From Minisyncoccota bacterium (lineage in GTDB: Bacteria; Patescibacteriota; Minisyncoccia; Phycocordibacterales; CSBR16-193): a stretch of DNA of 64,000 nt. The notes beneath the pieces are model-generated. The model saw only the letters and a list, made by a program, of their open reading frames with translations. It ran no database searches and was not told the origin of the DNA. Positions 586 to 35,359 of the stretch are shown here, piece after piece; position 1 is the stretch's first letter; each line of letters starts with the position of its first letter. Location: positions 395,095 through 459,094 of the forward strand of contig JBBDRA010000003.1 of assembly GCA_040905715.1 (NCBI GenBank), read 5' to 3'. The position numbers and the translations under genes are program-made.

Positions 586-1977
586 ATGGAAAATCGAATT
601 TACATACAAGATCTACACGAACATATCGGCTCAGAAGTAACTCTGGCTGGATGGGTTGATGTACGCCGAGACCACGGGAAGCTTATTTTCATAGACCTAC
701 GTGACGCAACCGGAAAAGTACAGATGGTCGCCTTACCTAAGAACAAAGCTGCTCACGTGGCCGCAAGCGCAGTGCGTCCGGAGTGGGTCATCAAGGTTGT
801 AGGGGAAGTAAAGGAACGCCCGGAAAAGATGGTTAATCCGGATCTGCCAAACGGCGATCTTGAGTTTGTCGTTACCGAGATGGAGGTGCTTGCTGAGGCG
901 CAGTCACTGCCGTTTGATCTCGATAGCGATCTGAACCTCGATACACTGCTTGATTATCGACCGCTCACGCTCCGAAGAAGTCGTGAACACGCTATTTTCA
1001 AGGTTCAATCTGCTATCGTCAACGCCTATCGAACTTTTTTAAACAATGAAGGCTTTACTGAGTTCCAGTCACCTAAGATCATCGGGGCTGATGCCGAAGG
1101 GAGCGGTGAAGTATTTGAGGTTAAATATCTTTACGATCGCATTGCTCACTTAGCGACTTCGCCCCAGCTTTACAAACAAATGCTCGTTGGTGTCTTTGAG
1201 CGGGTATTCACTGTCGGGAATGTTTTTCGCTCAGAAAAACACGCGACGTCGCGCCACTTGAATGAATATACCTCGCTCGACATGGAGATGGGGTTCATCA
1301 CTGATCATACTGACATTATGAAAGTTGAAACGAACCTTCTTCGTTCTGTGTGCGAACATTTACGTAACACCTGCGAGAAGGAGTTTTCCTTGTGTGGCTC
1401 CGAGATCCCTACTGTCCCTGAGAATATTCCAAGCATGAAGCTCCGAGAGGCTCAAGAGCTTATATACAAAGAAACCGGGAAAGATGTCAGGGAAGAGCCG
1501 GACCTTGAACCCGAAGATGAACGGTGGATGTGTGAATGGTCCAAACGCGAACATGATTCAGATTTTATGTTCATAACTCACTACCCGGTCTCGAAGCGAC
1601 CATTCTATACCTATGAAGATGAACAAGATCCGGGCTTTACGAAAAGTTTCGATCTTTTATTCCGTGGCGTAGAAATAACCACCGGCGGGCAACGTCGCCA
1701 CCTCTATGAGAGCATAGTAGAAGGAGCACGGCTGAAAAACCTGGATCCTGAGAACTTTGAATTTTATCTACAGGCATTCAAATACGGTATGCCGCCTCAT
1801 GGGGGGTGGGGAATGGGGCTCGAACGGCTTACCGCACGATTTCTGAACATTCCAAACGTAAAAGAAGCAACCTTGTTCCCGCGAGATATTAATCGTATCG
1901 ATACACGATTATCATCGGATGAGGAAGAGGGTTCAAGCGAAGCACCCGAAGAAAATATCAAAAATAATGCATCCTAA
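586..1977 (+). CDS. aspS: Aspartyl/asparaginyl-tRNA synthetase, class IIb, archaeal/non-discriminating-type length (463 aa)
   Basis: N-terminal OB anticodon-binding fold. Class II motif 2 FRSEKHATSRHLNEYTSLDME and motif 3 GMPPHGGWGMGLERL. Confidence 0.8.
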   Translation: MENRIYIQDLHEHIGSEVTLAGWVDVRRDHGKLIFIDLRDATGKVQMVALPKNKAAHVAASAVRPEWVIKVVGEVKERPEKMVNPDLPNGDLEFVVTEMEVLAEAQSLPFDLDSDLNLDTLLDYRPLTLRRSREHAIFKVQSAIVNAYRTFLNNEGFTEFQSPKIIGADAEGSGEVFEVKYLYDRIAHLATSPQLYKQMLVGVFERVFTVGNVFRSEKHATSRHLNEYTSLDMEMGFITDHTDIMKVETNLLRSVCEHLRNTCEKEFSLCGSEIPTVPENIPSMKLREAQELIYKETGKDVREEPDLEPEDERWMCEWSKREHDSDFMFITHYPVSKRPFYTYEDEQDPGFTKSFDLLFRGVEITTGGQRRHLYESIVEGARLKNLDPENFEFYLQAFKYGMPPHGGWGMGLERLTARFLNIPNVKEATLFPRDINRIDTRLSSDEEEGSSEAPEENIKNNAS

Positions 1978-3937: not shown

Positions 3938-4750
3938 ATGTCCGACCTGCTGGCGAATAATCAAATAGACGACCAGGACGCTCAAATTAATGGAAAGAAG
4001 GGTTTCAAGGTCAAAACAGAGGCTTTTGAAGGGCCATTGGACCTACTGCTGTCTCTGATCCAGAAGCGCAAACTTTTCATTAGTGATATTTCACTTGCTC
4101 AGGTAACCGACGACTATTTGACTCACCTTCAAGAACTTGAGCAATTTCCGGTTGCCGATAGCGCTCAGTTCATTCTCACCTCATCAACCTTGGTTTTGAT
4201 AAAGTCAAAATCGCTTTTACCGACTCTGGACCTTACCGACGAAGAGGAAGAGGACATCGAAGAGCTTGAGGAACGACTCAAGGCATACCAGAGAATACAG
4301 GATCTTTCGGTACACATACGCGACCTCTATGGTGAACAACTCATGGCGAGCGGGTGCTCACATCTTAATAAGACACCGGTTTTTTCACCAACTGACGAGA
4401 TAACACCAGCCAACCTCAGCGAAGCAATGAGAAGTGTCCTGAGCAGACTTCCAAAGCAAGAGCAAATACCGCAGACACAGGTAAAGAAGGTGGTGAGTCT
4501 CAAAGAGACGATAGAACGGCTGAGTGAGCGTATTCAAAGGAGTTTACGGGGCCGATTCTCTGAATTCTCCGGCTATCATCGAGGCAAGGAACTGAGCATG
4601 GAAGAGCGGGTAACGGTAGTGGTGAGTTTTCTGGCTATGCTCGAATTAGTCAAAACCGGACTGGTTCAGGTGAGCCAGCGATCTCATTTTGATGAGATCG
4701 AAATGGAGCACAGTGATATTGGTATTCCTCGTTATAATTCGTTAGAATAG
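3938..4750 (+). CDS. scpA: Segregation and condensation protein A
   Basis: FEGPLDLLLSLIQKRKLFISDISLAQVTDDYLTHL is the ScpA signature; adjacent to scpB. Confidence 0.8.
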   Translation: MSDLLANNQIDDQDAQINGKKGFKVKTEAFEGPLDLLLSLIQKRKLFISDISLAQVTDDYLTHLQELEQFPVADSAQFILTSSTLVLIKSKSLLPTLDLTDEEEEDIEELEERLKAYQRIQDLSVHIRDLYGEQLMASGCSHLNKTPVFSPTDEITPANLSEAMRSVLSRLPKQEQIPQTQVKKVVSLKETIERLSERIQRSLRGRFSEFSGYHRGKELSMEERVTVVVSFLAMLELVKTGLVQVSQRSHFDEIEMEHSDIGIPRYNSLE

Positions 4751-4764
4751 TTGAGCTTTGCATT

Positions 4765-5403
4765 ATGAAAACTGAATCTCAGATAGAAAGCATATTGTTC
4801 GTCAAAGGGGAGCCGGTAAAGCACTCTACGCTGTGCGAGGTCCTTGATATCTCTACTGAAGAGCTGAGAAATGCTCTTGTAAAACTTGAGCAGAACCTTC
4901 AGATCGAAGGAAGTGAGCGGGGTATACGGCTTGTACAAACCACTGACACCGTAGAACTGGCAGCAGCACCTGAGGCACACGAGCTTGTTGAAACACTTAA
5001 CAAAAAAGAGCTAACGAAACGACTTGGTCGAGCAGGCCTCGAGACCCTGACCATAGTACTGTACCAAGGGCCGGTAAGCCGCCGAGATATTGACTACATA
5101 CGCGGGGTAAATTCCACTGCCATTTTACGCAACCTGACCATTCGCGGCCTTATCGAACGACGCGAATCAGAAGACGGTAAACAAGCGATCGTGTACCAAC
5201 CGACCACTCAGCTTTTGCGCCATCTTGGTATATCGAGCACCAAGGAATTACCGGAACATGATGATATAGGAGATAAAGTAGAGCAATTTTACGAGACCAA
5301 TGAGCCGGACGACGTTCAAGCCATTGAGCAAGATGAGGAGCAGAGCGACACTTCAGGTTCACCTGATGAAGAAAGGAGCGAAAGCCAACAACGTACCTCC
5401 TAA
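4765..5403 (+). CDS. scpB: Segregation and condensation protein B
   Basis: IESILFVKGEPV...LETLTIVLYQGPVSRRDIDYIRGV are ScpB winged-helix repeats; acidic C-terminal tail. Confidence 0.8.
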   Translation: MKTESQIESILFVKGEPVKHSTLCEVLDISTEELRNALVKLEQNLQIEGSERGIRLVQTTDTVELAAAPEAHELVETLNKKELTKRLGRAGLETLTIVLYQGPVSRRDIDYIRGVNSTAILRNLTIRGLIERRESEDGKQAIVYQPTTQLLRHLGISSTKELPEHDDIGDKVEQFYETNEPDDVQAIEQDEEQSDTSGSPDEERSESQQRTS

Positions 5404-5432
5404 CGCCTGGTACCCGATCCAACACCTAAATC

Positions 5433-6455
5433 ATGAGATCATTACGATCATTTTTTCAAAAAATTAACCTACCGGAAGAAAACACCGGAATAAAAGCACT
5501 CAGTTATGGAGTGCTTGTTTTAGCAATGTCGGCTTTGATCCTTACCACAACACTCTGGAACCCTGAAACCAAAAGTGACGAGAGCAATAGTCAAACAGCC
5601 ACTCAGGATGAAGTTATCCGGGAGACGGAGGAGAAACCTGATCCGTTCAAGGGAATCCGCCTTCAAGCTGAAGCAGCGTACGTACTTGATACAACAACGG
5701 GTGAAGTACTGTTCGAGAAGAATGCCACCAAACATTGGCCTCTTGCTTCTATCACAAAGGTTATGACCGCAATGACCGCCCTAGATCTTATCCCTGATCA
5801 TACAGTAGTGACGGTTGACCAGAACGCGATGCTGATAGAAGGGGACAACGGACTGTACCGGGATGAGCAATGGTCACTTCAAGATCTGCTTGATTTTAGT
5901 TTAGTAACATCTTCAAACAGTGGATCCGGGGCGATCGCCTCTATTGCCGGGGCGATACATAACGGACCGGCCACAACGACTTTTGATGATAACGTCGCAT
6001 TTTTTGTTTCCGCAATGAACCAAAAAGCCCGAGAAATAGGACTTGCTGACACTGAGTTTCATAATCCTCACGGACTGGACACCGATGAGGAAAACAGCGG
6101 ATCATACAGCACTGCACGAGATACTGCGCTCATGATGGAATATGCTCTTGCCAACTATCCCGACCTTCTTGATTCAACTCGACGGCCATACATAACTCGC
6201 ACATCACTAGCAGACATAACTCATGTGGTAAATAATACAAACAAGGTTGTAAACCGTATACCCGGTGTTATTGCCTCTAAAACCGGGTATACCGACCTAT
6301 CAGGAGGTAACCTTGTGGTCGCGTTTGATGCAGGGCTTAACCACCCGATCATTGTTGTGGTGCTTGGTTCCGGCTATGATGAGCGATTCAGTGATGTGCT
6401 ACAATTAGTAAACGCCTCTATTGACGCAACATCTGATATTACACAAACGGAGTAG
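5433..6455 (+). CDS. dacA: D-alanyl-D-alanine carboxypeptidase (S11, PBP5-like)
   Basis: Signal/TM N-terminus; SITKVMTA (SxxK), SSN (SxN) and KTGYT (KTG) motifs in canonical order. Confidence 0.75.
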   Translation: MRSLRSFFQKINLPEENTGIKALSYGVLVLAMSALILTTTLWNPETKSDESNSQTATQDEVIRETEEKPDPFKGIRLQAEAAYVLDTTTGEVLFEKNATKHWPLASITKVMTAMTALDLIPDHTVVTVDQNAMLIEGDNGLYRDEQWSLQDLLDFSLVTSSNSGSGAIASIAGAIHNGPATTTFDDNVAFFVSAMNQKAREIGLADTEFHNPHGLDTDEENSGSYSTARDTALMMEYALANYPDLLDSTRRPYITRTSLADITHVVNNTNKVVNRIPGVIASKTGYTDLSGGNLVVAFDAGLNHPIIVVVLGSGYDERFSDVLQLVNASIDATSDITQTE

Positions 6456-6508
6456 GTCACTATTTTCAACATACACCGCCATGAAGGCTTCACGCTATAA
6501 TCTCGTCT

Positions 6509-7582
6509 ATGATCATCGATATCGTTAAAGTTATTCTCCCGGCAATTCTTGCGTTTTGGATCGGTATCGCGATCACGCCGTTTCTGACTGATTTTCTTTA
6601 CAAGCACCAGATGTGGAAGAAGAGATCCGGGAAGAAGGACTCGAACGGCATTGCTACGAAGATATTCAACCAACTTCACAAGACACGTGAGGTGGGCACA
6701 CCGAGATTAGGCGGTGTTGTTATTTGGGCATCGGCCACCATTACCATTGCAACTATCTGGTTGATGGCTTTCTTTGCCCCCAACGATCTGACCACCAAGC
6801 TAGACTTCCTCTCGCGGAGCCAAACCTGGGTACCGCTTGTAACACTGCTCGTGGGTGCGTTTGTTGGTCTTGTCGATGATCTCTTTGAGATAACCGGTGT
6901 TATTTCAAGAGTGTCGGGTGGACTTTCGCTTAAGGTACGTCTCGCGATCGTAACAACTGTCGGCGTGCTATGCGGCCTCTGGTTCTTTATGAAACTCGAT
7001 GTGACCGCTATAGGACTGCCGTTCGTTGACGCGCTCCAGATCGGCTGGCTTATTGTTCCACTTTTTGCCATTGTCCTGATCGCCATCTACTCAGGTGGTG
7101 TCATAGACGGGATAGACGGTCTTGCCGGCGGTGTTTTTGCGTCTATGTTTGCCGCTTACGCAGGCATTGCGTTCTATCAACAACAGATCAATCTTGCCGC
7201 TTTCAGTGCAATGATGGTCGGTGCAATCCTAGCGTTCCTCTGGTTTAATATTCCACCCGCCCGTTTTTATATGTCTGAGACCGGCTCGATGGCTCTCACG
7301 ATCACGCTTGGAGTCATCGCCTTCATGACCGACTCGCTTGGTGGGGGATACGGTCTTTTGGTGCTTCCGATCATCGGATTTCCGCTCGTGATGACCGTTC
7401 TCTCAAATATTATCCAGGTTACCTCAAAACGATTACGAGGAGGCAAAAAAGTATTCCTTGTTGCTCCGATTCACCATCATTTTGAAGCTATCGGCTGGCC
7501 CGCATACAAGGTCACGATGCGTTACTGGATCCTCGGTATCGTTGCCGCACTCTTAGGAATGATCTTAGCCCTCATTGGTTAG
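6509..7582 (+). CDS. mraY: Phospho-N-acetylmuramoyl-pentapeptide transferase
   Basis: 10-TM protein; PRLGGV, GLVDD, and APIHHHFEAIGWPAYKVTMRYW motifs. Confidence 0.9.
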   Translation: MIIDIVKVILPAILAFWIGIAITPFLTDFLYKHQMWKKRSGKKDSNGIATKIFNQLHKTREVGTPRLGGVVIWASATITIATIWLMAFFAPNDLTTKLDFLSRSQTWVPLVTLLVGAFVGLVDDLFEITGVISRVSGGLSLKVRLAIVTTVGVLCGLWFFMKLDVTAIGLPFVDALQIGWLIVPLFAIVLIAIYSGGVIDGIDGLAGGVFASMFAAYAGIAFYQQQINLAAFSAMMVGAILAFLWFNIPPARFYMSETGSMALTITLGVIAFMTDSLGGGYGLLVLPIIGFPLVMTVLSNIIQVTSKRLRGGKKVFLVAPIHHHFEAIGWPAYKVTMRYWILGIVAALLGMILALIG

Positions 7583-7660
7583 GTCTTCGCAAGATACAAG
7601 ATCGAGCTGTTTCAGCGGCACGTACGCACAACTCGAAAAGTCACGCCTCGTACGTACACC

Positions 7661-8779
7661 ATGACTACTCACAAACGCACATTTGACCGACCGTTTTTCA
7701 TAGCCGCTCTCATTCTTGTTGTAGGCGGCTTTTTCATATTTATTTCTGCCTCACTAGGACTCCTTGCACAAGAGAGGGTTACTTTTTCTGATGTTGTATT
7801 AAAGCAGTTCCTTTTTGGTTTAGTTGGTGGAACCGGGGCAATGTTCATTGTGAGTCATATACACTACCGTAACTGGCGCGCGTATGCGTTCTATGTTTTT
7901 TGTGCGTCGATTATTCTGACGCTTCTTGTTTTTATACCTCAGATCAGTTTTGAGCATGGTGGCGCCCGGCGATGGCTTTCACTCGGGCCGTTCACACTTC
8001 AACCATCTGAGGTTCTTAAGATCGGATTCGTTATCTATTTTGCTGCTTGGCTTTCCGGTGTGCGAAAGCGTGTTCACACATATTTATACGGGCTTCTACC
8101 ATTTCTTGTTTTACTTGTTATAACCGGAGCAATAGTACTCGGTCAGCGAGATACTGACACCTTTGCCATGATCGTGTTCGCGGGACTCGCTATGTACATG
8201 GTTGCCGGAGCGCGCTGGCGTCATATAGGTATTGTGATAGCAGCCGGACTAAGCGGGGCAGTGGTACTCGCATTATCACGACCATATATTATGGGTCGCA
8301 TTCTTACGTTTCTTGATCCCACGCAGGATCCGCTTGGCGCCAGTTACCAGATCCGTCAATCCTTGATCGCGATCGGTTCCGGTGGATTTTCCGGACGAGG
8401 TTTTGGCCAGAGCATCCAAAAGTTTGGCTTTCTGCCTGAACCTATCGGAGACTCCATCTTTGCAGTTGCCGCAGAGGAGTTCGGTTTCATTGGAAGCTTC
8501 GCGATCATTGCGCTTTTTATCTTTTTTGCATATCGAGGTCTTTACATCGCGGCTCGGGCTCCTGATTTCTTTTCTCGACTTTTGGTGGTCGGAATTGTTA
8601 TACTGATCGTTGTCCAATCATTTATGAACATAGCGGCAATGCTTGGCATGATTCCGCTCTCCGGAATGCCGCTCTTGTTCATAAGTCACGGCGGTACTGC
8701 ACTTATAATAACCCTTGTTGAGGTTGGTATTATACTCAACGTATCCAAATATATGACCAGTAAACCTTCTAACTTTTAA
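7661..8779 (+). CDS. ftsW: SEDS-family peptidoglycan glycosyltransferase FtsW/RodA
   Basis: GARRWLSLGPFTLQPSEVLKIGFVIYFAAWL and C-terminal SHGGTA motifs; sits between mraY and murG. Confidence 0.85.
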   Translation: MTTHKRTFDRPFFIAALILVVGGFFIFISASLGLLAQERVTFSDVVLKQFLFGLVGGTGAMFIVSHIHYRNWRAYAFYVFCASIILTLLVFIPQISFEHGGARRWLSLGPFTLQPSEVLKIGFVIYFAAWLSGVRKRVHTYLYGLLPFLVLLVITGAIVLGQRDTDTFAMIVFAGLAMYMVAGARWRHIGIVIAAGLSGAVVLALSRPYIMGRILTFLDPTQDPLGASYQIRQSLIAIGSGGFSGRGFGQSIQKFGFLPEPIGDSIFAVAAEEFGFIGSFAIIALFIFFAYRGLYIAARAPDFFSRLLVVGIVILIVVQSFMNIAAMLGMIPLSGMPLLFISHGGTALIITLVEVGIILNVSKYMTSKPSNF

Positions 8780-13634: not shown

Positions 13635-14585
13635 ATGAAAAGCGACAAACCTATCACTGCTCATATACTCCCCTTTCTCGATTACTGCGAGATCGAGAAA
13701 GGGCTGTCGAGTAATACTCAACGCAACTACAAACAGTACCTGCAGGTCTTTGAACTCTGGCTTACAAAGACGGGGAACAGCACTCTCCTCCCCCACAACC
13801 TTACTGCCGAACATGTTTGGGAATATCGATTATATCTTGCTCGAACCTATAAGTCCCCTGCCGGTAAGCATTTGAGTAAAAAATCTCAGAATTATTATTT
13901 GATCGCGCTCCGGGCTTTACTTAATTACTTTTCTGATCGCGACATGGGGTCACTACCTTCTACAAAAGTGAAACTTGCAAAGCAGAAGACCGAAGAGGCT
14001 ATATCTTTTCTTGAATACAACGACATTGAATCCATTGTGGCAGTACCGGACACTTCTACCCCGAAAGGTCTGCGAGACCGAGCGATTATGGAACTCCTGT
14101 TTTCATCAGGAATGCGTATTGCGGAACTCGTCGCGCTTGATCAAGATCAAATGTCTTTTCTCAAGGACGGCTCAACTGACAAAACATATGAGCTTGCGAT
14201 CGTAGGCAAAGGCAATCGTGTTCGTACAATTTTCATCTCTCCTCGAGCAGCTCAGTGGCTTCGCGAATATCTTGGTTCACGAGGTGATGTAGAGAAACCA
14301 CTTTTCAGTAACATCCGATCACGTGACCCGGGAAACAAGCGACTCTCTCCCCGATATATTCAAAAGATGATCTCCCAATGCGCCATGCTTGCCGGCATCT
14401 CAAAGAAAGTAACTCCGCACACGCTTCGCCACACATACGCCACCGACCTTCTCTCCCACGGAGCAGACCTCAGAAGTGTACAAGAGCTTCTTGGTCACAA
14501 AAATGTCTCCACTACTCAGGTATACACACACGTCACCAACAAACAGCTTAAAAATATTCACGAAAAATTTCACGGTAAGAAATAA
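13635..14585 (+). CDS. xerD: Tyrosine site-specific recombinase, XerC/XerD-like
   Basis: N-terminal core-binding domain (LDYCEIEKGLSSNTQRNYKQYL); catalytic R...HTLRHTYAT...LGHKNVSTTQVYTHV with R-H-R-Y residues in the XerD arrangement. Confidence 0.8.
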   Translation: MKSDKPITAHILPFLDYCEIEKGLSSNTQRNYKQYLQVFELWLTKTGNSTLLPHNLTAEHVWEYRLYLARTYKSPAGKHLSKKSQNYYLIALRALLNYFSDRDMGSLPSTKVKLAKQKTEEAISFLEYNDIESIVAVPDTSTPKGLRDRAIMELLFSSGMRIAELVALDQDQMSFLKDGSTDKTYELAIVGKGNRVRTIFISPRAAQWLREYLGSRGDVEKPLFSNIRSRDPGNKRLSPRYIQKMISQCAMLAGISKKVTPHTLRHTYATDLLSHGADLRSVQELLGHKNVSTTQVYTHVTNKQLKNIHEKFHGKK

Positions 14586-14651: not shown

Positions 14652-15137
14652 CTATCGTTGAGCGATCTGACTTCTTCCCGACCAACACGGTTTAGATGCT
14701 GACCATGGCTGAAGTCCTTGATCCTCGTAGAGAAGCTTGGCATATGCCAGGTTTCCCTCAAGACTGTAAATGTTGTAACCGAGCTCTTCCGCGCGTTCGA
14801 GGTGGTATCGCTCGTTGATCTGCATGACACCAACGTCATTTGAATCAACATAACCTCGTAAAACAGAACCGTTCTCTTTATACTGTCTTACTCGAGACTC
14901 ACACCAAGCGACATCATACATCTCCGGTGAATCAGCGAAATAAGCGCGCACGATCTCGTCGGTAGTTAATCCTTTGTTTGATCCTTCCTTATCTGCCTGA
15001 GCCTCATCAACATCATTACTTTGGGCAATTTCAGCATCCTGTTGCTCGCTTTGCTCAACTGCAATAACGTTTATCGGTTCAAGTGATATCGGTGAATCAG
15101 CGGTAACTCCTGCTACTGATATATGCGTTACAAGCAT
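14652..15137 (-). CDS. Secreted transglycosylase-like (lysozyme-like/Rpf-type) domain protein
   Basis: N-terminal signal peptide; AWCESRV...GVMQINERYH matches the CES...G.FQI core of the transglycosylase-like domain. Confidence 0.5.
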   Translation of the reverse strand: MLVTHISVAGVTADSPISLEPINVIAVEQSEQQDAEIAQSNDVDEAQADKEGSNKGLTTDEIVRAYFADSPEMYDVAWCESRVRQYKENGSVLRGYVDSNDVGVMQINERYHLERAEELGYNIYSLEGNLAYAKLLYEDQGLQPWSASKPCWSGRSQIAQR

Positions 15138-15822
15138 TCCAATCGTTGCAAGACGTAATATAAGCCTATCACTAGTAGTAATGCCCTTATATCAAGCCGG
15201 GTACCACAATTACTAGAGAGGACTTCCCTCTCTACAACCGCAGTGAGTGAGAAAAAGTGGCTTGCTAAGGGGTGCTCTCGTCTCATTTCGTGCAGGGTCA
15301 ACCCATCGATCCTGCTGTGAAATGACGAGATCTCCGCAGCCTTCAACAGGTATACAATAACACACTGTTATATTTTGTCAAGTATTTTTGAATTTAAGTT
15401 TAACTCTCCTGGATCCGTGGTATAGACGGGATCACAGACGCCAAAAATGAACTGAAAACAAAAAAATGCCGGCTACGGCAACGCAGATAAACTAGCACAC
15501 TTCCCTCTTCCTTGCAAGAGATATTTCAATAATACTGCTCTATTGAGCGTTATTTTATAAATACCATACTTGTGAATACGTTGCACCATTCTATCGAATC
15601 AGTAAGGCAGACAAGTAGAGTGATATTTACTCTGTTCCCTCCCCTTGCCTAACTCAACTGTACTTTCATTAGGATATGTGAGGTTTTTTGAGCATACTTT
15701 TTTTCATACGAGCTATACCTGGACAGTACCTAGACATTTTTCTAATATGTGATATAACTGTTTCAGTAATTCTTACGTATTTTGTTCAACCTGGCAGGGA
15801 CCGCCAACCATGGAGAAAGGCC

Positions 15823-16170
15823 ATGAAAGAAATTATGAGGAAAAGAGAGGAAAAGATCCGAGCGTTCCACCGAATGACCGCAGAGGAAGATCTCTGGGGA
15901 ATCTATGAGTTCTGCCAAAGGGACCGGAGACTCACTGTGCTGTGGAAGGACATGTGCGAATATGCCAGCGTCTACCATAGGCACGCCGTTCGTCCACTTG
16001 CAAGAAAGTTTAAAGAAGGACGAGGGGTCTCTGAGGCAGAGAAGATTTTCTACCTCTACCTACAGGCTGAGTTCCTCAGGAGACAGCAGATGCTTCGAAA
16101 ACAGCTTGCGAAAAAAGGCAAAGAGATGAAAGCTGTTTACGCTTCCACGTTGGCAAACAAGTTCTGTTAA
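15823..16170 (+). CDS. Hypothetical protein with atypical codon usage (AGG/AGA/CGA-rich)
   Basis: Internal Met with RBS GGAGAAAGG 7 nt upstream (the ORF track starts at 15688); basic, helical 115-aa product; ends at a strong intrinsic terminator. Confidence 0.35.
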   Translation: MKEIMRKREEKIRAFHRMTAEEDLWGIYEFCQRDRRLTVLWKDMCEYASVYHRHAVRPLARKFKEGRGVSEAEKIFYLYLQAEFLRRQQMLRKQLAKKGKEMKAVYASTLANKFC

Positions 16171-16203
16171 CCGCCCCAGCAGTATGGCTGCGGGCGGTTT
16201 TTC
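16171..16203 (+). terminator. Intrinsic terminator
   Basis: CCGCCCCAGCAGTATGGCTGCGGGCGGTTTTTC. Confidence 0.55.
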
Positions 16204-16222
16204 ATTTTAATAGCTACGCCTT

Positions 16223-16432
16223 TTACTCCTTAGGGTGCCATTTACCATCACTTCCCTTTTCGTATTTTTCCTTAACTGCCGCCCAGGCAACACGGGCAGC
16301 GCGACTTTCTTCTCCGTCATATTGCTCCATTGCACTATTGTACGCCTCCATCCAAATATCCTGTGCGTGAGGCACGTCCTCTAATGGATCTTGAACCTGC
16401 TTTGGAAGATCTTCCCTTTTTGAATATGGCAT
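16223..16432 (-). CDS. chaB: ChaB-family protein
   Basis: MPYSKREDLPKQVQDPLEDVPHAQDIWMEAYNSAMEQY...AARVAWAAVKEKYEKGSDGKWHPKE aligns with ChaB along its full length. Confidence 0.7.
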   Translation of the reverse strand: MPYSKREDLPKQVQDPLEDVPHAQDIWMEAYNSAMEQYDGEESRAARVAWAAVKEKYEKGSDGKWHPKE

Positions 16433-16559
16433 GCAATAAAAGACACACCTCCGGACAGATGATTACACAAATACTTCCTGTCGGGAGTATTTTGACGCAG
16501 TACTTCGCACTATCGTGCTTGCACTGCGTAGCTCGATGCGGCAGCATCGAGCGAAGCAG

Positions 16560-16632
16560 TGGACCTGAGGGGATTTGAACCCCTTGCCTCACGCATGCCA
16601 TGCGTGCGCTCTACCAATTGAGCTACAGGCCC
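16560..16632 (-). tRNA. tRNA-Ala (anticodon GGC)
   Basis: Reverse complement folds as a 73-nt cloverleaf: acceptor GGGCCTG/CAGGTCC with a G3:U70 pair (Ala identity element), D-arm GCTC-AATTGGTA-GAGC, anticodon stem-loop CACGC-ATGGCAT-GCGTG, T-arm AGGGG-TTCAAAT-CCCCT, discriminator A. CCA not encoded. Confidence 0.85.
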
Positions 16633-16688
16633 CAGTGAGGAGCGGTCGAAAGCTTGCTTTCGTTCCGTCCGAACGCCGGGTCTGCAAG
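16623..16688. repeat. 66-bp direct repeat, copy A (tRNA-Ala first 11 nt plus 5' leader)
   Basis: CTACAGGCCCCAGTGAGGAGCGGTCGAAAGCTTGCTTTCGTTCCGTCCGAA[CGCCGGG]TCTGCAAG; about 63/66 identical to copy C. Confidence 0.75.
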
Positions 16689-16842
16689 ATCTTCTTACAG
16701 GCCCGAGTGAGAAGCAGAATGCAAATTTTTAATTTATATTCTCTTCGAACGAGGGTTTGCAAGCTTTGCTTACTCCAACAAGCGAAGGAGAAAACAAAAG
16801 TTTACTTTTATTTTTCCTGAGCGCAGTTGGAGCAGGCTTTGC

Positions 16843-16908
16843 CTACAGGCCCCAGTGAGGAGCGGTCGAAAGCTTGCTTTCGTTCCGTCCGAATGCTGAG
16901 TCTGCAAG
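16843..16908. repeat. 66-bp direct repeat, copy C
   Basis: Same sequence as copy A with 3 mismatches (TGCTGAG in place of CGCCGGG), 220 bp upstream of copy A on the minus strand. A degenerate third copy lies at 16694-16722. Confidence 0.75.
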
Positions 16909-16985
16909 TTTCGTCTAACCCCTCCTCCTATCTGCTAGAGAATACCACATGTCTCGAACGATAGAAATAATAATACTCCGAATCT

Positions 16986-17867
16986 CTATTCTTTCGTATG
17001 GGACGTAGCAGATGAGACGCACCGACCACAACACTCTCCCCTATCTTCAGACGAGCACGACGTACAACAGATAAAATGCCTATTGCACTCAGCCTCTTTG
17101 CAATTAATATACCGTTCGCACTTTTCTTCACACAGCTCACAGTGACCAACAACATCCGACGAGGAAGTATCCATTACAACACGACCGTCAAATACATACA
17201 ATTTCCCCTTGAAATGCTTTCCCGGGTACTTCTTCACATACTGATCAATTCCACCCTGGAGCTGATACACATTCTTTAATCCTCCCTGTTTAAGCACGTG
17301 AGCAGTCGCCTTTTCACAACGTACCCCTCCGGTACAAACAGACACAACAGGGCGATCTCCAAGGTCTTTTACTTTTTCCGGAAGCTTTTGAACATCACGA
17401 AAGGTATTCATGCCTGATGGTACTGTTTTATCTAAACACCCGACCGCAAGCTCGTAGTCATTTCGCATATCAAGCACATAGAACTCCCTACCTTCTTCAT
17501 ACCATTTATGCAGTTCATCCGGAGTAATATATGGTGCACTCTCCTTACTAGGATCCACTCCCTTCACACCCGAGCTCACGATCTCATTACGTACCTTTAT
17601 CGATAGTTTTGGAAAAGAAGAACCGGTGCCCTCGCTCTTCTTGAAAACAATATCCGCAAATCGCGCATCCTTCTTGAGTGTCTCACAGTACACCTCGATA
17701 CTCTCTGATTCCCCCTCAAGGGTTCCATTTATACCCTCTTCAGCAAGAATAACCCGTCCGGTCAGACCAAGCTCACTACACAGCTTCCACTGGGCATCAC
17801 GAAGAGCAGCAGGATCTTCAACGGTAACGTACTTGTAATATAGAATGACATTGTGACTGCTTTGCAT
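16986..17867 (-). CDS. trhO: Rhodanese-domain tRNA U34 hydroxylase TrhO (YceA/UPF0176)
   Basis: VILYYKYVTVEDP...GRVILAEEGINGT N-domain; rhodanese core FYVLDMRNDYE...VCTGGVRCEKA; Cys-rich C-terminus. Confidence 0.8.
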   Translation of the reverse strand: MQSSHNVILYYKYVTVEDPAALRDAQWKLCSELGLTGRVILAEEGINGTLEGESESIEVYCETLKKDARFADIVFKKSEGTGSSFPKLSIKVRNEIVSSGVKGVDPSKESAPYITPDELHKWYEEGREFYVLDMRNDYELAVGCLDKTVPSGMNTFRDVQKLPEKVKDLGDRPVVSVCTGGVRCEKATAHVLKQGGLKNVYQLQGGIDQYVKKYPGKHFKGKLYVFDGRVVMDTSSSDVVGHCELCEEKCERYINCKEAECNRHFICCTSCSSEDRGECCGRCVSSATSHTKE

Positions 17868-17878
17868 AGGTAGTTACT

Positions 17879-18508
17879 TTACCTTTTTGCACCACTCTCT
17901 TCAAGCCACGGAATCGAGTGGTCAAAGAACTTCTCAAAACTTGAGCGTTGATACAGTAGCCGTGACAACGACTCCGCTTCCCAAACGGCGCCATTAAGCG
18001 AGTTGTGCGGATGAGGCTCGGCTGGAATACCAACGTATTTGTAGATATCCTCACCTCGAAGTTTTGAAAAGCCATTTTCAGACACCGGAGGCGCTACGCC
18101 ACGCGCTACCATGTGTGCGTAGCAAACAGAGTGGAGATCCACAATGCGTTTTGGCACAACGCTCCCCGACTCAAGACCAACCGTGATCCCGCCCCGCCTT
18201 GCTGCAGCCATAATAAATAGAAGATCAAAATGATGATTAAGTCCACCAAAAACATAGTCATTTTGTTGAGCAAGCCACTCTGAGAACTTCGCGATAAGCT
18301 GTGCATCACTGCACTTCTCCTCATCCATAATCTCGTCTCGGGTAAAACCATTCACATTGAGCGCCTCCTGATGTATCTCAGCCCCATTCCAAACCCGACA
18401 CTCCATATAAAAGGTCTTATTGGTATCTACCAAGGAAACCGCCCCGAGAGACACAATGCTCGATCGATCTGGATCAAGTCCGGTTGTTTCGATATCAAGA
18501 ACTATCAT
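17879..18508 (-). CDS. DEDDh-family 3'-5' exonuclease (DnaQ/RNase T-like)
   Basis: Exo I VLDIETTGLD, Exo II FGGLNHHFDLLFI, and Exo III HNSLNGAVWEAESL motifs. Confidence 0.7.
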   Translation of the reverse strand: MIVLDIETTGLDPDRSSIVSLGAVSLVDTNKTFYMECRVWNGAEIHQEALNVNGFTRDEIMDEEKCSDAQLIAKFSEWLAQQNDYVFGGLNHHFDLLFIMAAARRGGITVGLESGSVVPKRIVDLHSVCYAHMVARGVAPPVSENGFSKLRGEDIYKYVGIPAEPHPHNSLNGAVWEAESLSRLLYQRSSFEKFFDHSIPWLEESGAKR

Positions 18509-20363: not shown

Positions 20364-20563
20364 GATGTGTTATTAGTTCAGTTATATTGTGATTCTATAC
20401 TACACAGGAAACAGTAAAAGTAAACCCTAAAATGTATTTTAAAGCACTTTAGAGTTTGCTGTAACTACGCCTGCCTGCCGGCAGAGGCAGGCTTTCAACC
20501 GCTCCTCGCTGGTTGCAGTAAAGCTATACAACTCTACAGAACTCTCCTAACCTCCCGGCTTAA

Positions 20564-25124: not shown

Positions 25125-26564
25125 TTGAAAGCGTCATCCAGCATGGTAGGATACATACGACTTCATATGAGCACCACGGTAACTACACCCAAAAAAAGTA
25201 CGAGCGGACTGCGCGTCCCCCCGCAAAATATCGAGAGTGAACAAGCTTTGATCGGCTCTATTCTACTACGTCCGGAGGCCATGTACGAAGTGACCGATAT
25301 GGTAACCGCAAACTCTTTCTACGCCGATAAGCACCGCCTCATCTACGAGGCAATGATCGAGCTGTTTCAAAAACATGAACCGATCGACATGCTCTCGCTT
25401 TCAAACCGTCTCAAGGAAAAAGGTATACTTGACCAGATCGGTGGCAACGAGTATCTGACCGATCTCACAAACGCGGTCCCTTCCTCAGCCAACCTGAAAT
25501 ATTACGCCAAGTTAATACAGAAGAAATTCATGATGCGTGGTCTGATCGATGCTTCAGAGTTTATCGGTGCACTTGGGTACGATGACAACAGCGAACTCGA
25601 AGAGATCCTGGACAAGGCCGAAAAACGTATTTATGAACTCAGCAACGCTTCAGCAACGCACAAATTTGTTGAGATGAAGGACGAACTTACAGAGGCCTGG
25701 GAACGCCTCGACAAACTTCACAATTCAAAAGAAGATATTCGAGGTGTACCGACCGGCTTTCCAGCAATTGATAATACTATTGCCGGCCTACAGCCTTCTG
25801 ATCTTATTATTTTAGCCGCTCGTCCTTCCATGGGTAAGACCGCACTCGCACTTGATATCGCCCGCCAGGCTGCCGTTAACCATAATGTATCAGTTGGTAT
25901 CTTCTCACTCGAAATGAGCTCTCAGCAACTCGTAGACCGTATGCTCGCTGCCCAGGCTCTTGTTGATGCCTGGAAACTGCGTACCGGCAAACTCACCAGC
26001 GACGAGGATTTCAAATCGATTCAAGAATCCCTCGACAAGCTCTCTCGAGCACCTATCTATATTGACGACGAGGCAACCAACAACATCCTTAAGATGCGCT
26101 CTGTAGCCCGTCGGCTCAAGAGTGAAAAAGGGCTCGACCTTATCATCGTGGACTACCTGCAGCTTATGCAACCAATTGAATCACGAGGTAGCGACTCGAC
26201 CGTCCAGCAAATTACTGAGATCTCGCGAAGCTTGAAGCAGCTCGCACGTGAACTCGATGTGCCCGTTCTGGCTCTCTCTCAGCTTTCTCGTGCTGTTGAA
26301 CAGCGCGGCGGTCGACCGAAGCTATCTGACCTTCGTGATTCCGGTGCGATTGAGCAAGATGCCGATGTCGTGATGTTCATTCATCGTGAGAAGGGGCACG
26401 AGGCAGACGAGGACAACGACAACATTGCTGAAATCCTGATCGAAAAACACCGAAACGGTCCGACCGGTATCGCTCAGCTCCATTTCAATGACAAAAAATC
26501 TACCTTCCAGAGTATAGAGAAAGGTCAGTATGCCGGAGTCGAAGATGAATTCGCTAGCTTTTAA
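25125..26564 (+). CDS. dnaB: Replicative DNA helicase DnaB
   Basis: N-domain NIESEQALIGSILL; RecA core AARPSMGKTALALDIA (Walker A), IIVDYLQLM (Walker B), SQLSRAVEQR. The true start may be the internal Met at 25167. Confidence 0.9.
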   Translation: MKASSSMVGYIRLHMSTTVTTPKKSTSGLRVPPQNIESEQALIGSILLRPEAMYEVTDMVTANSFYADKHRLIYEAMIELFQKHEPIDMLSLSNRLKEKGILDQIGGNEYLTDLTNAVPSSANLKYYAKLIQKKFMMRGLIDASEFIGALGYDDNSELEEILDKAEKRIYELSNASATHKFVEMKDELTEAWERLDKLHNSKEDIRGVPTGFPAIDNTIAGLQPSDLIILAARPSMGKTALALDIARQAAVNHNVSVGIFSLEMSSQQLVDRMLAAQALVDAWKLRTGKLTSDEDFKSIQESLDKLSRAPIYIDDEATNNILKMRSVARRLKSEKGLDLIIVDYLQLMQPIESRGSDSTVQQITEISRSLKQLARELDVPVLALSQLSRAVEQRGGRPKLSDLRDSGAIEQDADVVMFIHREKGHEADEDNDNIAEILIEKHRNGPTGIAQLHFNDKKSTFQSIEKGQYAGVEDEFASF

Positions 26565-33613: not shown

Positions 33614-33744
33614 TCACAAAAAGAAACTTCCTCGGCGCAAAGCGCCAACTCGCGCCTACGGCGCGGAATGTGGGGAGCCAAAATACCACGTCGCTTCGCG
33701 ACGAATTGGGACGGGACGGGCGCGCCGAAGCGCGCGGATTTGTC
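33614..33744. repeat. 131-bp inverted repeat, left copy (IR-L)
   Basis: Exact reverse complement of 35160-35290, verified block by block; about 62% GC; made of four short GC hairpins. Confidence 0.9.
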
Positions 33745-33770: not shown

Positions 33771-35348
33771 ATGATCAAACCAAAATATTTTCTATACGCT
33801 CGCAAGAGCACTGAAGATGATGATAAGCAGGTGATGTCTATCGAGGCACAGTTGTTTGAGCTTCGTGAATTTGCGCGTAAAGAAAATCTTGAAATCCTAA
33901 CGGAGTTTCAAGAGTCGAAAAGCGCAAAGACTCCTGGACGTGAGCAGTTTGCGGAAATGATGACGCGCATTGAAGCGGGAGAAGCACAGGGTATTCTCTC
34001 GTGGCACCCAGACCGTTTAGCCAGAAATAGTATCGATGGAGGGCGCGTCATTTATGCTGTCGATACTTCCAAGATATCGTCTTTGCGCTTTCCGACATTT
34101 TGGTTTGAACCCACCCCGCAAGGGCTCTTTATGTTGCAAGTGGCGTTCGGACAATCGAAATATTATTCAGACAATCTGACGCAGAATGTGAAGCGCGGGA
34201 TGCGCCAAAAAGTTCGGCGAGGCGAGTGGCTCACCAAAGCTCCCTTTGGCTATGTGAACAATCCACGTACGAGAAATATCGAACCGCATCCAGTTCATAG
34301 CAAGATCATTGTGAAAGCGTTTGAGGAATACGCCAAAGGTGAGCATGGATTGGTTTCGCTCGCCGACTTTTTGGCGCTGCATGGAGTAACTACCCAGAAA
34401 GGAACGCCACTTGGCAAAGCTTCCATCAAACGAATGCTGACGAACCGAGCATATCTTGGATTTGTCCGTCATCATGGCGAATGGTTTGACGGAAGCTTTG
34501 CGCCAATTATTTCCCCGAAATTGTTTGAAGCCGTACAAAAAGTATTGTCGGCAAGAGAACGTCCTCGCAAGCGGAAAGTGAAGCATGACTTTCCCTTTGT
34601 TGGTATTTTTGAGTGCGGTGAGTGTGGGAGCATGTTCACGGCACAGTGGGCTACGGGCAAGTGCGGAGGAAAGTATCGGTATTATCGTTGTACCAAAAAG
34701 AAAGGGTCATGCTCCCAAGGATATGTGCGTGAGGACGTTCTCGCCGACCAAGTAAAGGAACAGCTTCAAACAATTTCGATTTGCGATGCATACACTGATT
34801 ATATGCTCGACAAAGTCGAGGAAATGGAGAAAACAGAAAATACTGCATCGCAAAGCGGTGTCCAAAATCTTTCCGATAGAATCAAAGCCAGTGAGGCACG
34901 CATGGATAAGCTAGTCGGTGCATATCTTGATGGCGACATTCCGCGAGACATCTACACCAAGAAAAAAGACGAGATCATGCGTGCCACCCTTGCTTTGAAA
35001 GAGGAAAAGAAAGATTTTGCACACCAAGGAAATAATTGGGTCGAACCCCTGCGGGAGTGGATTTTAGATACGAAACAAGCCACCTTTTTATCCTCATCCG
35101 ACAATTTCCCTGAAATTGCCTCCTTCGTCAAAAAAGTTGGAACGAACCCCTTGGTTCGTGACAAATCCGCGCGCTTCGGCGCGCCCGTCCCGTCCCAATT
35201 CGTCGCGAAGCGACGTGGTATTTTGGCTCCCCACATTCCGCGCCGTAGGCGCGAGTTGGCGCTTTGCGCCGAGGAAGTTTCTTTTTGTGACCCTACGGGG
35301 AATCGAACCCCGGTTTCATCCGTGAGAGGGATGTGTCCTAGCCGCTAG
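33771..35348 (+). CDS. Large serine recombinase (resolvase/invertase N-domain + recombinase domain + zinc ribbon)
   Basis: YARKSTEDDDKQVMSIEAQ carries the catalytic Ser; GILSWHPDRLARN; recombinase domain; C4 ribbon CGECGSMF...CTKKKGSC; coiled-coil tail. The last ~43 codons are encoded by IR-R. Confidence 0.85.
   Translation: MIKPKYFLYARKSTEDDDKQVMSIEAQLFELREFARKENLEILTEFQESKSAKTPGREQFAEMMTRIEAGEAQGILSWHPDRLARNSIDGGRVIYAVDTSKISSLRFPTFWFEPTPQGLFMLQVAFGQSKYYSDNLTQNVKRGMRQKVRRGEWLTKAPFGYVNNPRTRNIEPHPVHSKIIVKAFEEYAKGEHGLVSLADFLALHGVTTQKGTPLGKASIKRMLTNRAYLGFVRHHGEWFDGSFAPIISPKLFEAVQKVLSARERPRKRKVKHDFPFVGIFECGECGSMFTAQWATGKCGGKYRYYRCTKKKGSCSQGYVREDVLADQVKEQLQTISICDAYTDYMLDKVEEMEKTENTASQSGVQNLSDRIKASEARMDKLVGAYLDGDIPRDIYTKKKDEIMRATLALKEEKKDFAHQGNNWVEPLREWILDTKQATFLSSSDNFPEIASFVKKVGTNPLVRDKSARFGAPVPSQFVAKRRGILAPHIPRRRRELALCAEEVSFCDPTGNRTPVSSVRGMCPSR
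35160..35290. repeat. 131-bp inverted repeat, right copy (IR-R)
   Basis: See IR-L; its terminal TGA (35288-35290) is also the discriminator plus last two acceptor nucleotides of tRNA-Glu. Confidence 0.9.
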
Positions 35349-35359
35349 ACGATAGGGTC
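35288..35359 (-). tRNA. tRNA-Glu (anticodon CTC)
   Basis: Reverse complement GACCCTA-TC-GTCT-AGCGGCTA-GGAC-A-CATCC-CTCTCAC-GGATG-AAAC-CGGGG-TTCGATT-CCCCG-TAGGGTC-A: a 72-nt cloverleaf with Glu-type architecture; CCA not encoded. Confidence 0.85.

Follow-up and report, generated by a model that had tools for sequence, protein, structure and literature searches.

We analysed a 64,000-nt stretch of DNA (hereafter the window; positions 395,095 to 459,094 of contig JBBDRA010000003.1, assembly GCA_040905715.1) from an uncultured Patescibacteria / Candidatus Paceibacterota metagenome-assembled genome, with emphasis on the spacer between a tRNA-Ala(GGC) gene and trhO, the gene for the tRNA uridine-34 hydroxylase, which lies upstream of it on the same strand. 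The tRNA gene is intact, carries the G3:U70 pair and does not encode CCA. TrhO was identified by the NCBIfam equivalog NF001133 (226.7 bits for a cutoff of 170) and by the Pfam domains UPF0176_N, Rhodanese and Rhodanese_C. The 353-nt spacer between them is almost entirely a head-to-tail array of four units of 71-77 nt each, in the order C-X-B-A from trhO to the tRNA gene.

The four-unit array

The units succeed each other in register, with periods of 72, 71, 77 and 72 nt, and the terminal unit A is fused in register to the tRNA gene, i.e. its 3' arm consists of tRNA nucleotides 1-10. The same ten nucleotides are matched exactly at the end of unit C, which terminates in GGGCCTGTAG, and at nine of ten positions at the end of unit B; they are absent from unit X. 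A short linker (ACGAAA in C, GCAAAG in X and in B, GAAGAT in A) opens each unit; beyond it, C, B and A share CTTGCA(G/A)AC...GTTCG, a central stem-loop and ...CTCACT(G/C)GGGCCTGTA(A)G. Coordinates, scores and folds of all features are collected in Table 1.

The preliminary description of this DNA had reported a 66-bp direct repeat, about 95 % identical in two copies 220 bp apart, and our repeat search reproduced both coordinates and mismatches. Copies A (16623-16688) and C (16843-16908) agree at 63 of 66 positions and differ at 52, 55 and 57 of the repeat (CGCCGGG vs TGCTGAG); the first 51 nt, in plus-strand reading, are identical. A 32-nt core of the repeat occurs twice in the window and never twice in 100 shuffles of it. 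Copy C begins 77 nt beyond the trhO stop at 16986, and copy A is made of tRNA nucleotides 1-10 plus 56 nt of leader. The earlier count of 11 tRNA nucleotides is thus corrected to ten, the additional G being position -1, while the observation that the repeat includes tRNA-internal sequence, and so is not a plain duplicated promoter, holds. A degenerate partial copy placed at 16694-16722 does exist (15/17 positions) but is not partial, as it forms the 3' end of the full-length unit B. That description lacked the minus-strand position of the tRNA, the count of four units rather than 2.5, the palindromes that run the whole length of each unit, and the pairing of the tRNA-like end with the unit's own 5' end.

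The membership of the two diverged units was assessed by pairwise alignment and with R1, a covariance model of the repeat unit. Unit B aligned to A and C better than all 1000 shuffles (p<0.001). The core of unit X, which fills seemingly unique DNA between C and B, was recovered by R1 with an E-value of 0.002 when 16 kb were searched and of 0.03 when 211 kb were searched, and X aligned to B in register (p=0.002). Moreover, A, C and X share the placing of the apical loop (positions 39-42) and of a single-base bulge (position 53), and the X pairs from A35-U46 to G38-C43 are found exactly where A and C have them; the inner hairpins of all four units are homologous. The 71 nt between unit C and trhO were considered as a possible fifth, decayed copy, which found no statistical support (alignment p 0.15-0.37, no R1 match, fold z -0.75). 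Tandem Repeats Finder reported nothing for the array, as its units are too diverged, and an Rfam search of 15000-18500 at E<=10 returned only the tRNA and noise.

Table 1. Features of the trhO-tRNA-Ala locus and of a related sequence in the window
Feature	Coordinates	Strand	R1 (bits)	Fold (kcal/mol; z)	Remarks
18-bp hairpin	16522..16561	minus			repeat search, 89% complementary; begins at tRNA position 72; trailer or terminator-like structure without a T run
tRNA-Ala(GGC)	16632->16560	minus			ARAGORN; Rfam RF00005, 67.5 bits, E 8e-14
Unit A	16623..16694	minus	102	-27.0; -2.8	linker GAAGAT + repeat copy A; 23 pairs
Unit B	16695..16771	minus	57.2 (E 4e-15)	-17.2; -3.0	diverged, full-length; ends CGGGCCTGTAA(G); 0/200 shuffles as stable
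Putative promoter in unit B	16733..16762	minus			TTGCAA (16762-16757), 18-nt spacer, TATAAA (16738-16733)
Unit X	16772..16842	minus	17.1	-31.8; -6.8	most stable of the units
Unit C	16843..16914	minus	101.2	-23.1; -2.2	linker ACGAAA + repeat copy C
Possible decayed unit D (no statistical support)	16915..16985	minus			71 nt; has CGTTCGAGA and GGGGTTAGACGAAA
trhO	16986..17867	minus			tRNA uridine-34 hydroxylase; upstream of tRNA-Ala
Solitary half-unit	20484..20520	plus			3' half + linker-like sequence; spacer between S41 peptidase and L9 genes

The array is real, and the checks lend no support to an assembly artefact. The source is a metagenome-assembled genome, in which duplications of this kind might be suspected, and an assembly duplication had been named beforehand as a possible explanation; the second assembly and the break of a unitig nevertheless support both repeat copies. 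A separate scaffolded assembly, GCA_040879545.1, differs from the window by one single-nucleotide difference in 4.3 kb and is identical to it over 16200-17100, so that two assemblies cover the locus, with the same number of units in both. The Logan unitig from SRR27977661 is 100% identical to 19765-16864 and ends 30 nt past the last A/C mismatch, where a k=31 graph must branch if both repeat copies are present in the reads. The 51-nt block shared by the copies is, besides, shorter than typical assembly k-mers. In the second assembly, a 100-N gap (its positions 4341-4440; window 16025-16079) lies inside the open reading frame (ORF) 15811-16170, with edges that overlap by 55 bp; the apparent indel between the two assemblies was accordingly dismissed as a biological difference, being an unclosed scaffold join.

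Hairpin structure of the units

Each unit forms an imperfect hairpin over its whole length, its 5' arm pairing with its 3' arm, and each folded more stably than its shuffled versions (z-scores in Table 1). The tRNA-like arm of A, B and C is the 3' one; with the ten tRNA-like bases counted in, the 5' arm UUGCAGACCC pairs with the 3' arm GGGCCUGUAG. The 5' arm of unit A is CUUGCAGACCC. The hairpin CGAAAGC/GCTTTCG noted earlier is present as the tip of this longer structure. Folding of the whole spacer together with the tRNA gave a z-score of -7.8, and in the minimum-free-energy structure computed for the entire region the tRNA-Ala cloverleaf is still present.

Pairing has been kept where sequence has changed. 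The outer arms of unit X (CUCCAAC / GUUGGAG) have lost all likeness to the tRNA and are perfectly complementary, with two pairs flipped relative to A (A-U to U-A and G-C to C-G), and two of the three A/C differences also preserve pairing (C-G to U.G and G.U to A-U). In a three-sequence MAFFT alignment, 87.7% of the cells were paired and three pairs had changed on both sides, a result reached by 18 of 500 shuffles. In a four-sequence alignment fitted to the model, these figures rose to 89.7% of the cells and, for two-sided changes, to 8 of the 12 pairs of the inner stem (0/500 shuffles), and pairing collapsed when the partners were slid. Since X has a perfect stem without any tRNA-like sequence, what was retained is the hairpin and not the tRNA fragment. 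The stem-loops have probably been kept as RNA structures, their shape having outlived their sequence; DNA-level correction of quasi-palindromes could leave the same pattern. No strand asymmetry was seen in folding or in G.U counts.

The arms of X also recall integron attC sites, whose core consensus is RYYYAAC / GTTRRRY: as DNA (CTCCAAC / GTTGGAG) they match it at six of seven positions each. The AAC/GTT cores are missing from A, B and C, no cassette ORFs lie between the units and no integron integrase was found, the C-terminus of the tyrosine recombinase described below scoring 105 bits with TIGR02249 for a cutoff of 265. To an attC cluster, as to an assembly artefact, we give next to no credence.

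Two further candidates were discarded. A template/variable repeat pair like that of diversity-generating retroelements, considered from the three A/C mismatches, was set aside as the region is non-coding and the Pfam lists contain no reverse transcriptase. The units were also considered as miniature substrates of RNase P and rejected on their topology: this enzyme cuts on the 5' side of the 5' strand in an acceptor-like helix, whereas the tRNA-like strand is the 3' strand of each hairpin.

That units C and B each end precisely in a tRNA 5' fragment would suit a remnant of tandem tRNA-Ala genes whose upstream copies lost the gene body from position 11 on, i.e. the deletion between tandem tRNA copies proposed in the preliminary description, and E. 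coli tyrT-type loci do pair tandem tRNA genes with tRNA-linked repeats (TLRs) (PMC8144298). No D arm, anticodon arm, T arm or tRNA 3' end is detectable anywhere in the spacer, however, and unit X has no tRNA fragment at all. Such an origin would further need three independent deletions with the same start (position 10 or 11) and the same leader end, and we hold it to be highly improbable.

Neighbouring genes and distribution of the array

No canonical terminator was found by the terminator scan between trhO and tRNA-Ala. A canonical intrinsic terminator can be read from the sequence at 16172-16205 on the plus strand (CCGCCC...GGGCGG followed by TTTTTCATTTT), after the ORF 15811-16170; as terminators with a GC stem and a T run are therefore used in this genome, the absence of one after trhO deserves attention. 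Beyond the tRNA gene's 3' end, 2 kb (14652-16432) hold small genes with minor or no family matches, among them those for two proteins (161 and 119 aa) that matched neither Pfam nor NCBIfam and for a 69-aa ChaB-family protein; no duplicate of the tRNA-Ala 3' end that would mark this segment as an island was found. A Xer-like tyrosine recombinase gene follows at 13635-14585, and dnaB lies at 25125-26564. The GC skew changes sign within ~4000-8000, being positive before ~6 kb and persistently negative after it, a change that may mark the replication origin or terminus.

tRNA genes are classic integration sites. Because the direct repeats include a tRNA gene end and the tyrosine recombinase gene is only 2 kb away, the units might be attL/attR-type scars of lost integrative elements that targeted the tRNA 5' end, as the att-type duplication suggested beforehand would have it. 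The repeats enclose only 154 bp, however, which are units X and B and hold neither ORF nor integrase; the recombinase, outside the repeats, is best assigned to XerC/XerD (229 and 218 bits). The tRNA 3' end is not duplicated, and clean excision would leave one copy rather than four. No attP-like match was found: the leader-tRNA junction had none among IMG/VR viral contigs, and the array none among INPHARED phages and PLSDB plasmids, collections with few Patescibacteria elements. We consider scars of this kind extremely improbable.

As far as the sequences searched extend, the array is specific to this lineage. The next TrhO in the protein database is ~55% identical, and the TrhO relatives found by scanning contigs of GTDB representatives (34-47% identical) have no tRNA neighbour. 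A probe made of the first 25 nt of the tRNA and its anticodon context retrieved 42 JGI metagenome loci with a tRNA-Ala(GGC) sharing these 25 nt, in none of which (0/42) is the 5' fragment repeated upstream; this leader, trhO beside the tRNA and an R1 match are likewise absent from all of them. A 22-nt motif of the unit gave 0 matches in the metagenome scan, R1 none in 360 kb of related contigs, and a distant-mode blastn against 5,426 E. coli genomes found nothing. Among 90 tRNAs in ~450 kb of contigs, only the present tRNA-Ala(GGC) has a repeat across its 5' junction. The preliminary description had reckoned with relatives that conserve the two copies; the relatives are without the structure. 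The comparison with orthologous trhO-tRNA-Ala spacers that it recommended was made as a search, and no alignable orthologous spacer exists.

One of the metagenome contigs retrieved with the tRNA-Ala(GGC) probe (Ga0209726_10000163, ~1700-1922, minus strand) shows a classical 3'-side arrangement, TLR- or att-like: the last 17 nt of a tRNA-Ala(CGC) and ~45 nt of its trailer, which includes a terminator-like hairpin, are repeated 139 nt downstream. The array resembles such 3'-end att duplications in being a direct repeat of a tRNA gene end with flanking sequence. att repeats, in contrast, bracket an integrase-carrying mobile element and use the 3' part of the gene, neither of which is true of the array.

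The upstream sequences of the 42 loci bear on a further explanation, namely that the units are functional tandem promoters, each driving tRNA-Ala, in the manner of P1/P2 of stable-RNA operons. Several of these loci have a -10-like box ~7-12 nt before the mature tRNA 5' end, which makes descent of the module from a promoter region plausible; every unit of the array starts with a -35-like hexamer (TTGCAG or TTGCAA), and in unit B this is combined with a -10-like hexamer (Table 1). The latter site, in the AT-rich tip of the unit, is the sole sigma-70-like match in the spacer on this strand, and with 9/12 in a relaxed scan it ranked first on this strand in the stretch from trhO to the tRNA. On the other hand, a -10-like hexamer at the right spacing is missing from units A, C and X, and a stricter scan found no promoter on this strand. 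A promoter has no need to reach 10 nt into the gene, and it is base pairing rather than promoter hexamers that is conserved across the units. That the units are a set of working promoters seems very unlikely.

Within the genome itself, R1 found nothing elsewhere in the ~105 kb searched (the largest contig alone is 523 kb). A solitary half-unit was recovered by other means in another intergenic region, on the opposite strand (Table 1): it agrees with the motif GCTTTCRACCGCTCCTCRCTGG at 20 of 22 nt, a match for which 0 are expected by chance, and it ranked above unit B in nhmmer, with a borderline E-value of 0.026. An 8-bp GC hairpin accompanies it at 20470-20493.

This half-unit is one of several features that recall REP/REPIN- or MITE-like palindromic families, of which a cluster abutting the tRNA could have been recombined or captured at the tRNA 5' end. 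All units are imperfect palindromes of 71-77 nt, and, as in REP/BIME/REPIN, BOX and MIRU-type repeats, palindromes of tens of nt are clustered in intergenic DNA after a gene, where they are potential mRNA-stabilising stem-loops; tandem arrays are known for MIRU and boxB. The units close with GTAG, the tetranucleotide that the REPs of enterobacteria conserve, and X lies between two nearly identical direct repeats of 10 nt, TAGGCAAAGC and TAAGCAAAGC, much as if flanked by a target-site duplication. These flanks are, however, the inter-unit linker present at every junction. REP/BIME/REPIN-type families are dispersed in tens to hundreds of copies, and REPINs are inverted pairs linked to a RAYT gene, whereas here four units form one local array, all direct and head-to-tail, with a single doubtful fragment besides in ~105 kb of genome and no IS200/RAYT-type transposase among the Pfam assignments for the genes of the window and its flanks. 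We regard membership of such a family as unlikely.

Elsewhere in the window, a large serine recombinase ORF (33771-35348, plus strand; Pfam Resolvase, Recombinase and Zn_ribbon_recom) is bracketed by a perfect 131-bp inverted repeat (33614-33744 / 35160-35290), whose arms are 1415 nt apart. The right arm of the repeat, inside the 3' end of this ORF, consists of the last 4 nt of a tRNA-Glu(CTC) gene (35287-35359, minus strand) and 127 nt of its trailer. The segment could be invertible, an element integrated at tRNA-Glu or an assembly artefact; a look-up of the exact protein returned no record elsewhere.

Origin, possible working and significance of the array

The closest parallel that we found lies in the TLRs of E. 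coli (Egan & Landy 1978; Rudd 1999; reviewed in PMC8144298). These repeats were first noticed at tyrT, and the function of most is unknown. [quoted passage not shown] They are transcribed together with the stable RNA. The array shares with them the short tandem units, four in this case, directly beside a tRNA gene and in the same orientation, unit ends (those of A, B and C) that repeat the terminal nucleotides of the adjacent gene, the non-coding character and, probably, an origin by local duplication. TLRs sit downstream and repeat the last 18-19 nt of the gene; the array, in contrast, sits upstream and repeats the first 10, it includes a unit (X) that has lost the gene-derived end, and it has no sequence similarity to E. 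coli and no Rfam family match. Its units are also whole-length hairpins, a trait that we do not know to be defining for TLRs.

We lean, without strong commitment, towards serial local duplication of a promoter/leader module, which would make the upstream array a 5'-side mirror image of the E. coli TLRs. The tRNA-proximal module (promoter, leader and first 10 nt of the gene) would have been copied repeatedly at its own site, through slipped-strand mispairing or unequal recombination, the upstream copies being unable to yield a tRNA. X and B would be old copies. A and C, as they share 51 identical nt with similarity decaying upstream of this block, would be a recent, non-adjacent copy pair or have been homogenised by gene conversion. 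The array is thus probably a product of local duplication and not a new kind of system; of the three origins put forward in the preliminary description, only a tandemly amplified processing or leader element fits.

As to its working, the sole sigma-70-like site being in unit B and no terminator following trhO, the tRNA may be transcribed from a predicted start near 16726 or by read-through from trhO. The precursor would then carry a structured leader of at least 90 nt (unit A), which RNase P would remove at 16633/16632. The role that we favour for the hairpins is that of RNA stem-loops in the tRNA leader or the 3' region of trhO, where they may protect, buffer or stabilise the message's 3' end or may offer double-strand processing sites between mRNA and tRNA.

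Several points weigh against serial duplication followed by retention as RNA. The order C(A-like)-X-B-A differs from that expected of simple stepwise tandem duplication, so that conversion or a non-adjacent copy must be invoked, and, the next trhO being only ~55% identical, there are no close relatives from which the order of duplications could be reconstructed. The half-unit, 3.6 kb away and on the other strand, hints that the unit is possibly not purely local. The stricter promoter scan omits the site in unit B, whose -10 hexamer has no T at position 6. Concerning structure, the covariation counts come from four paralogous rows in a structure-fitted alignment, both DNA strands fold equally well as RNA, and with DNA folding parameters only X is clearly exceptional; these results, with the lack of strand asymmetry, do not tell selection on RNA from structure kept in the DNA.

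A more ambitious reading, which we find quite unlikely, sees in the array structured RNA modules maintained by selection on the 5' side of the tRNA, a genuine 5' counterpart of TLRs, processed into discrete, leader-derived hairpin small RNAs and possibly spread elsewhere. The 5' arm of three of the four units is complementary to tRNA-Ala nucleotides 1-10, and such arms could regulate tRNA-Ala maturation or act as a sponge for its 5' fragments; the half-unit at 20.5 kb would suggest spread of the unit to other loci.

On present evidence, the array appears to be a curiosity of one species-level lineage. It occupies 350 nt of non-coding DNA, which is unusual in a reduced Patescibacteria genome, and it raises the question of how a tRNA copes with a leader able to pair with its acceptor strand. 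If serial local duplication is the true explanation, TLRs are confined neither to enterobacteria nor to the 3' side of stable-RNA genes, and local duplication of this sort is also able to produce structured arrays 5' of such genes. The locus offers a concrete test case for distinguishing neutral duplication debris from RNA stem-loops that act in mRNA-end stabilisation, as processing sites or as leader-derived small RNAs.

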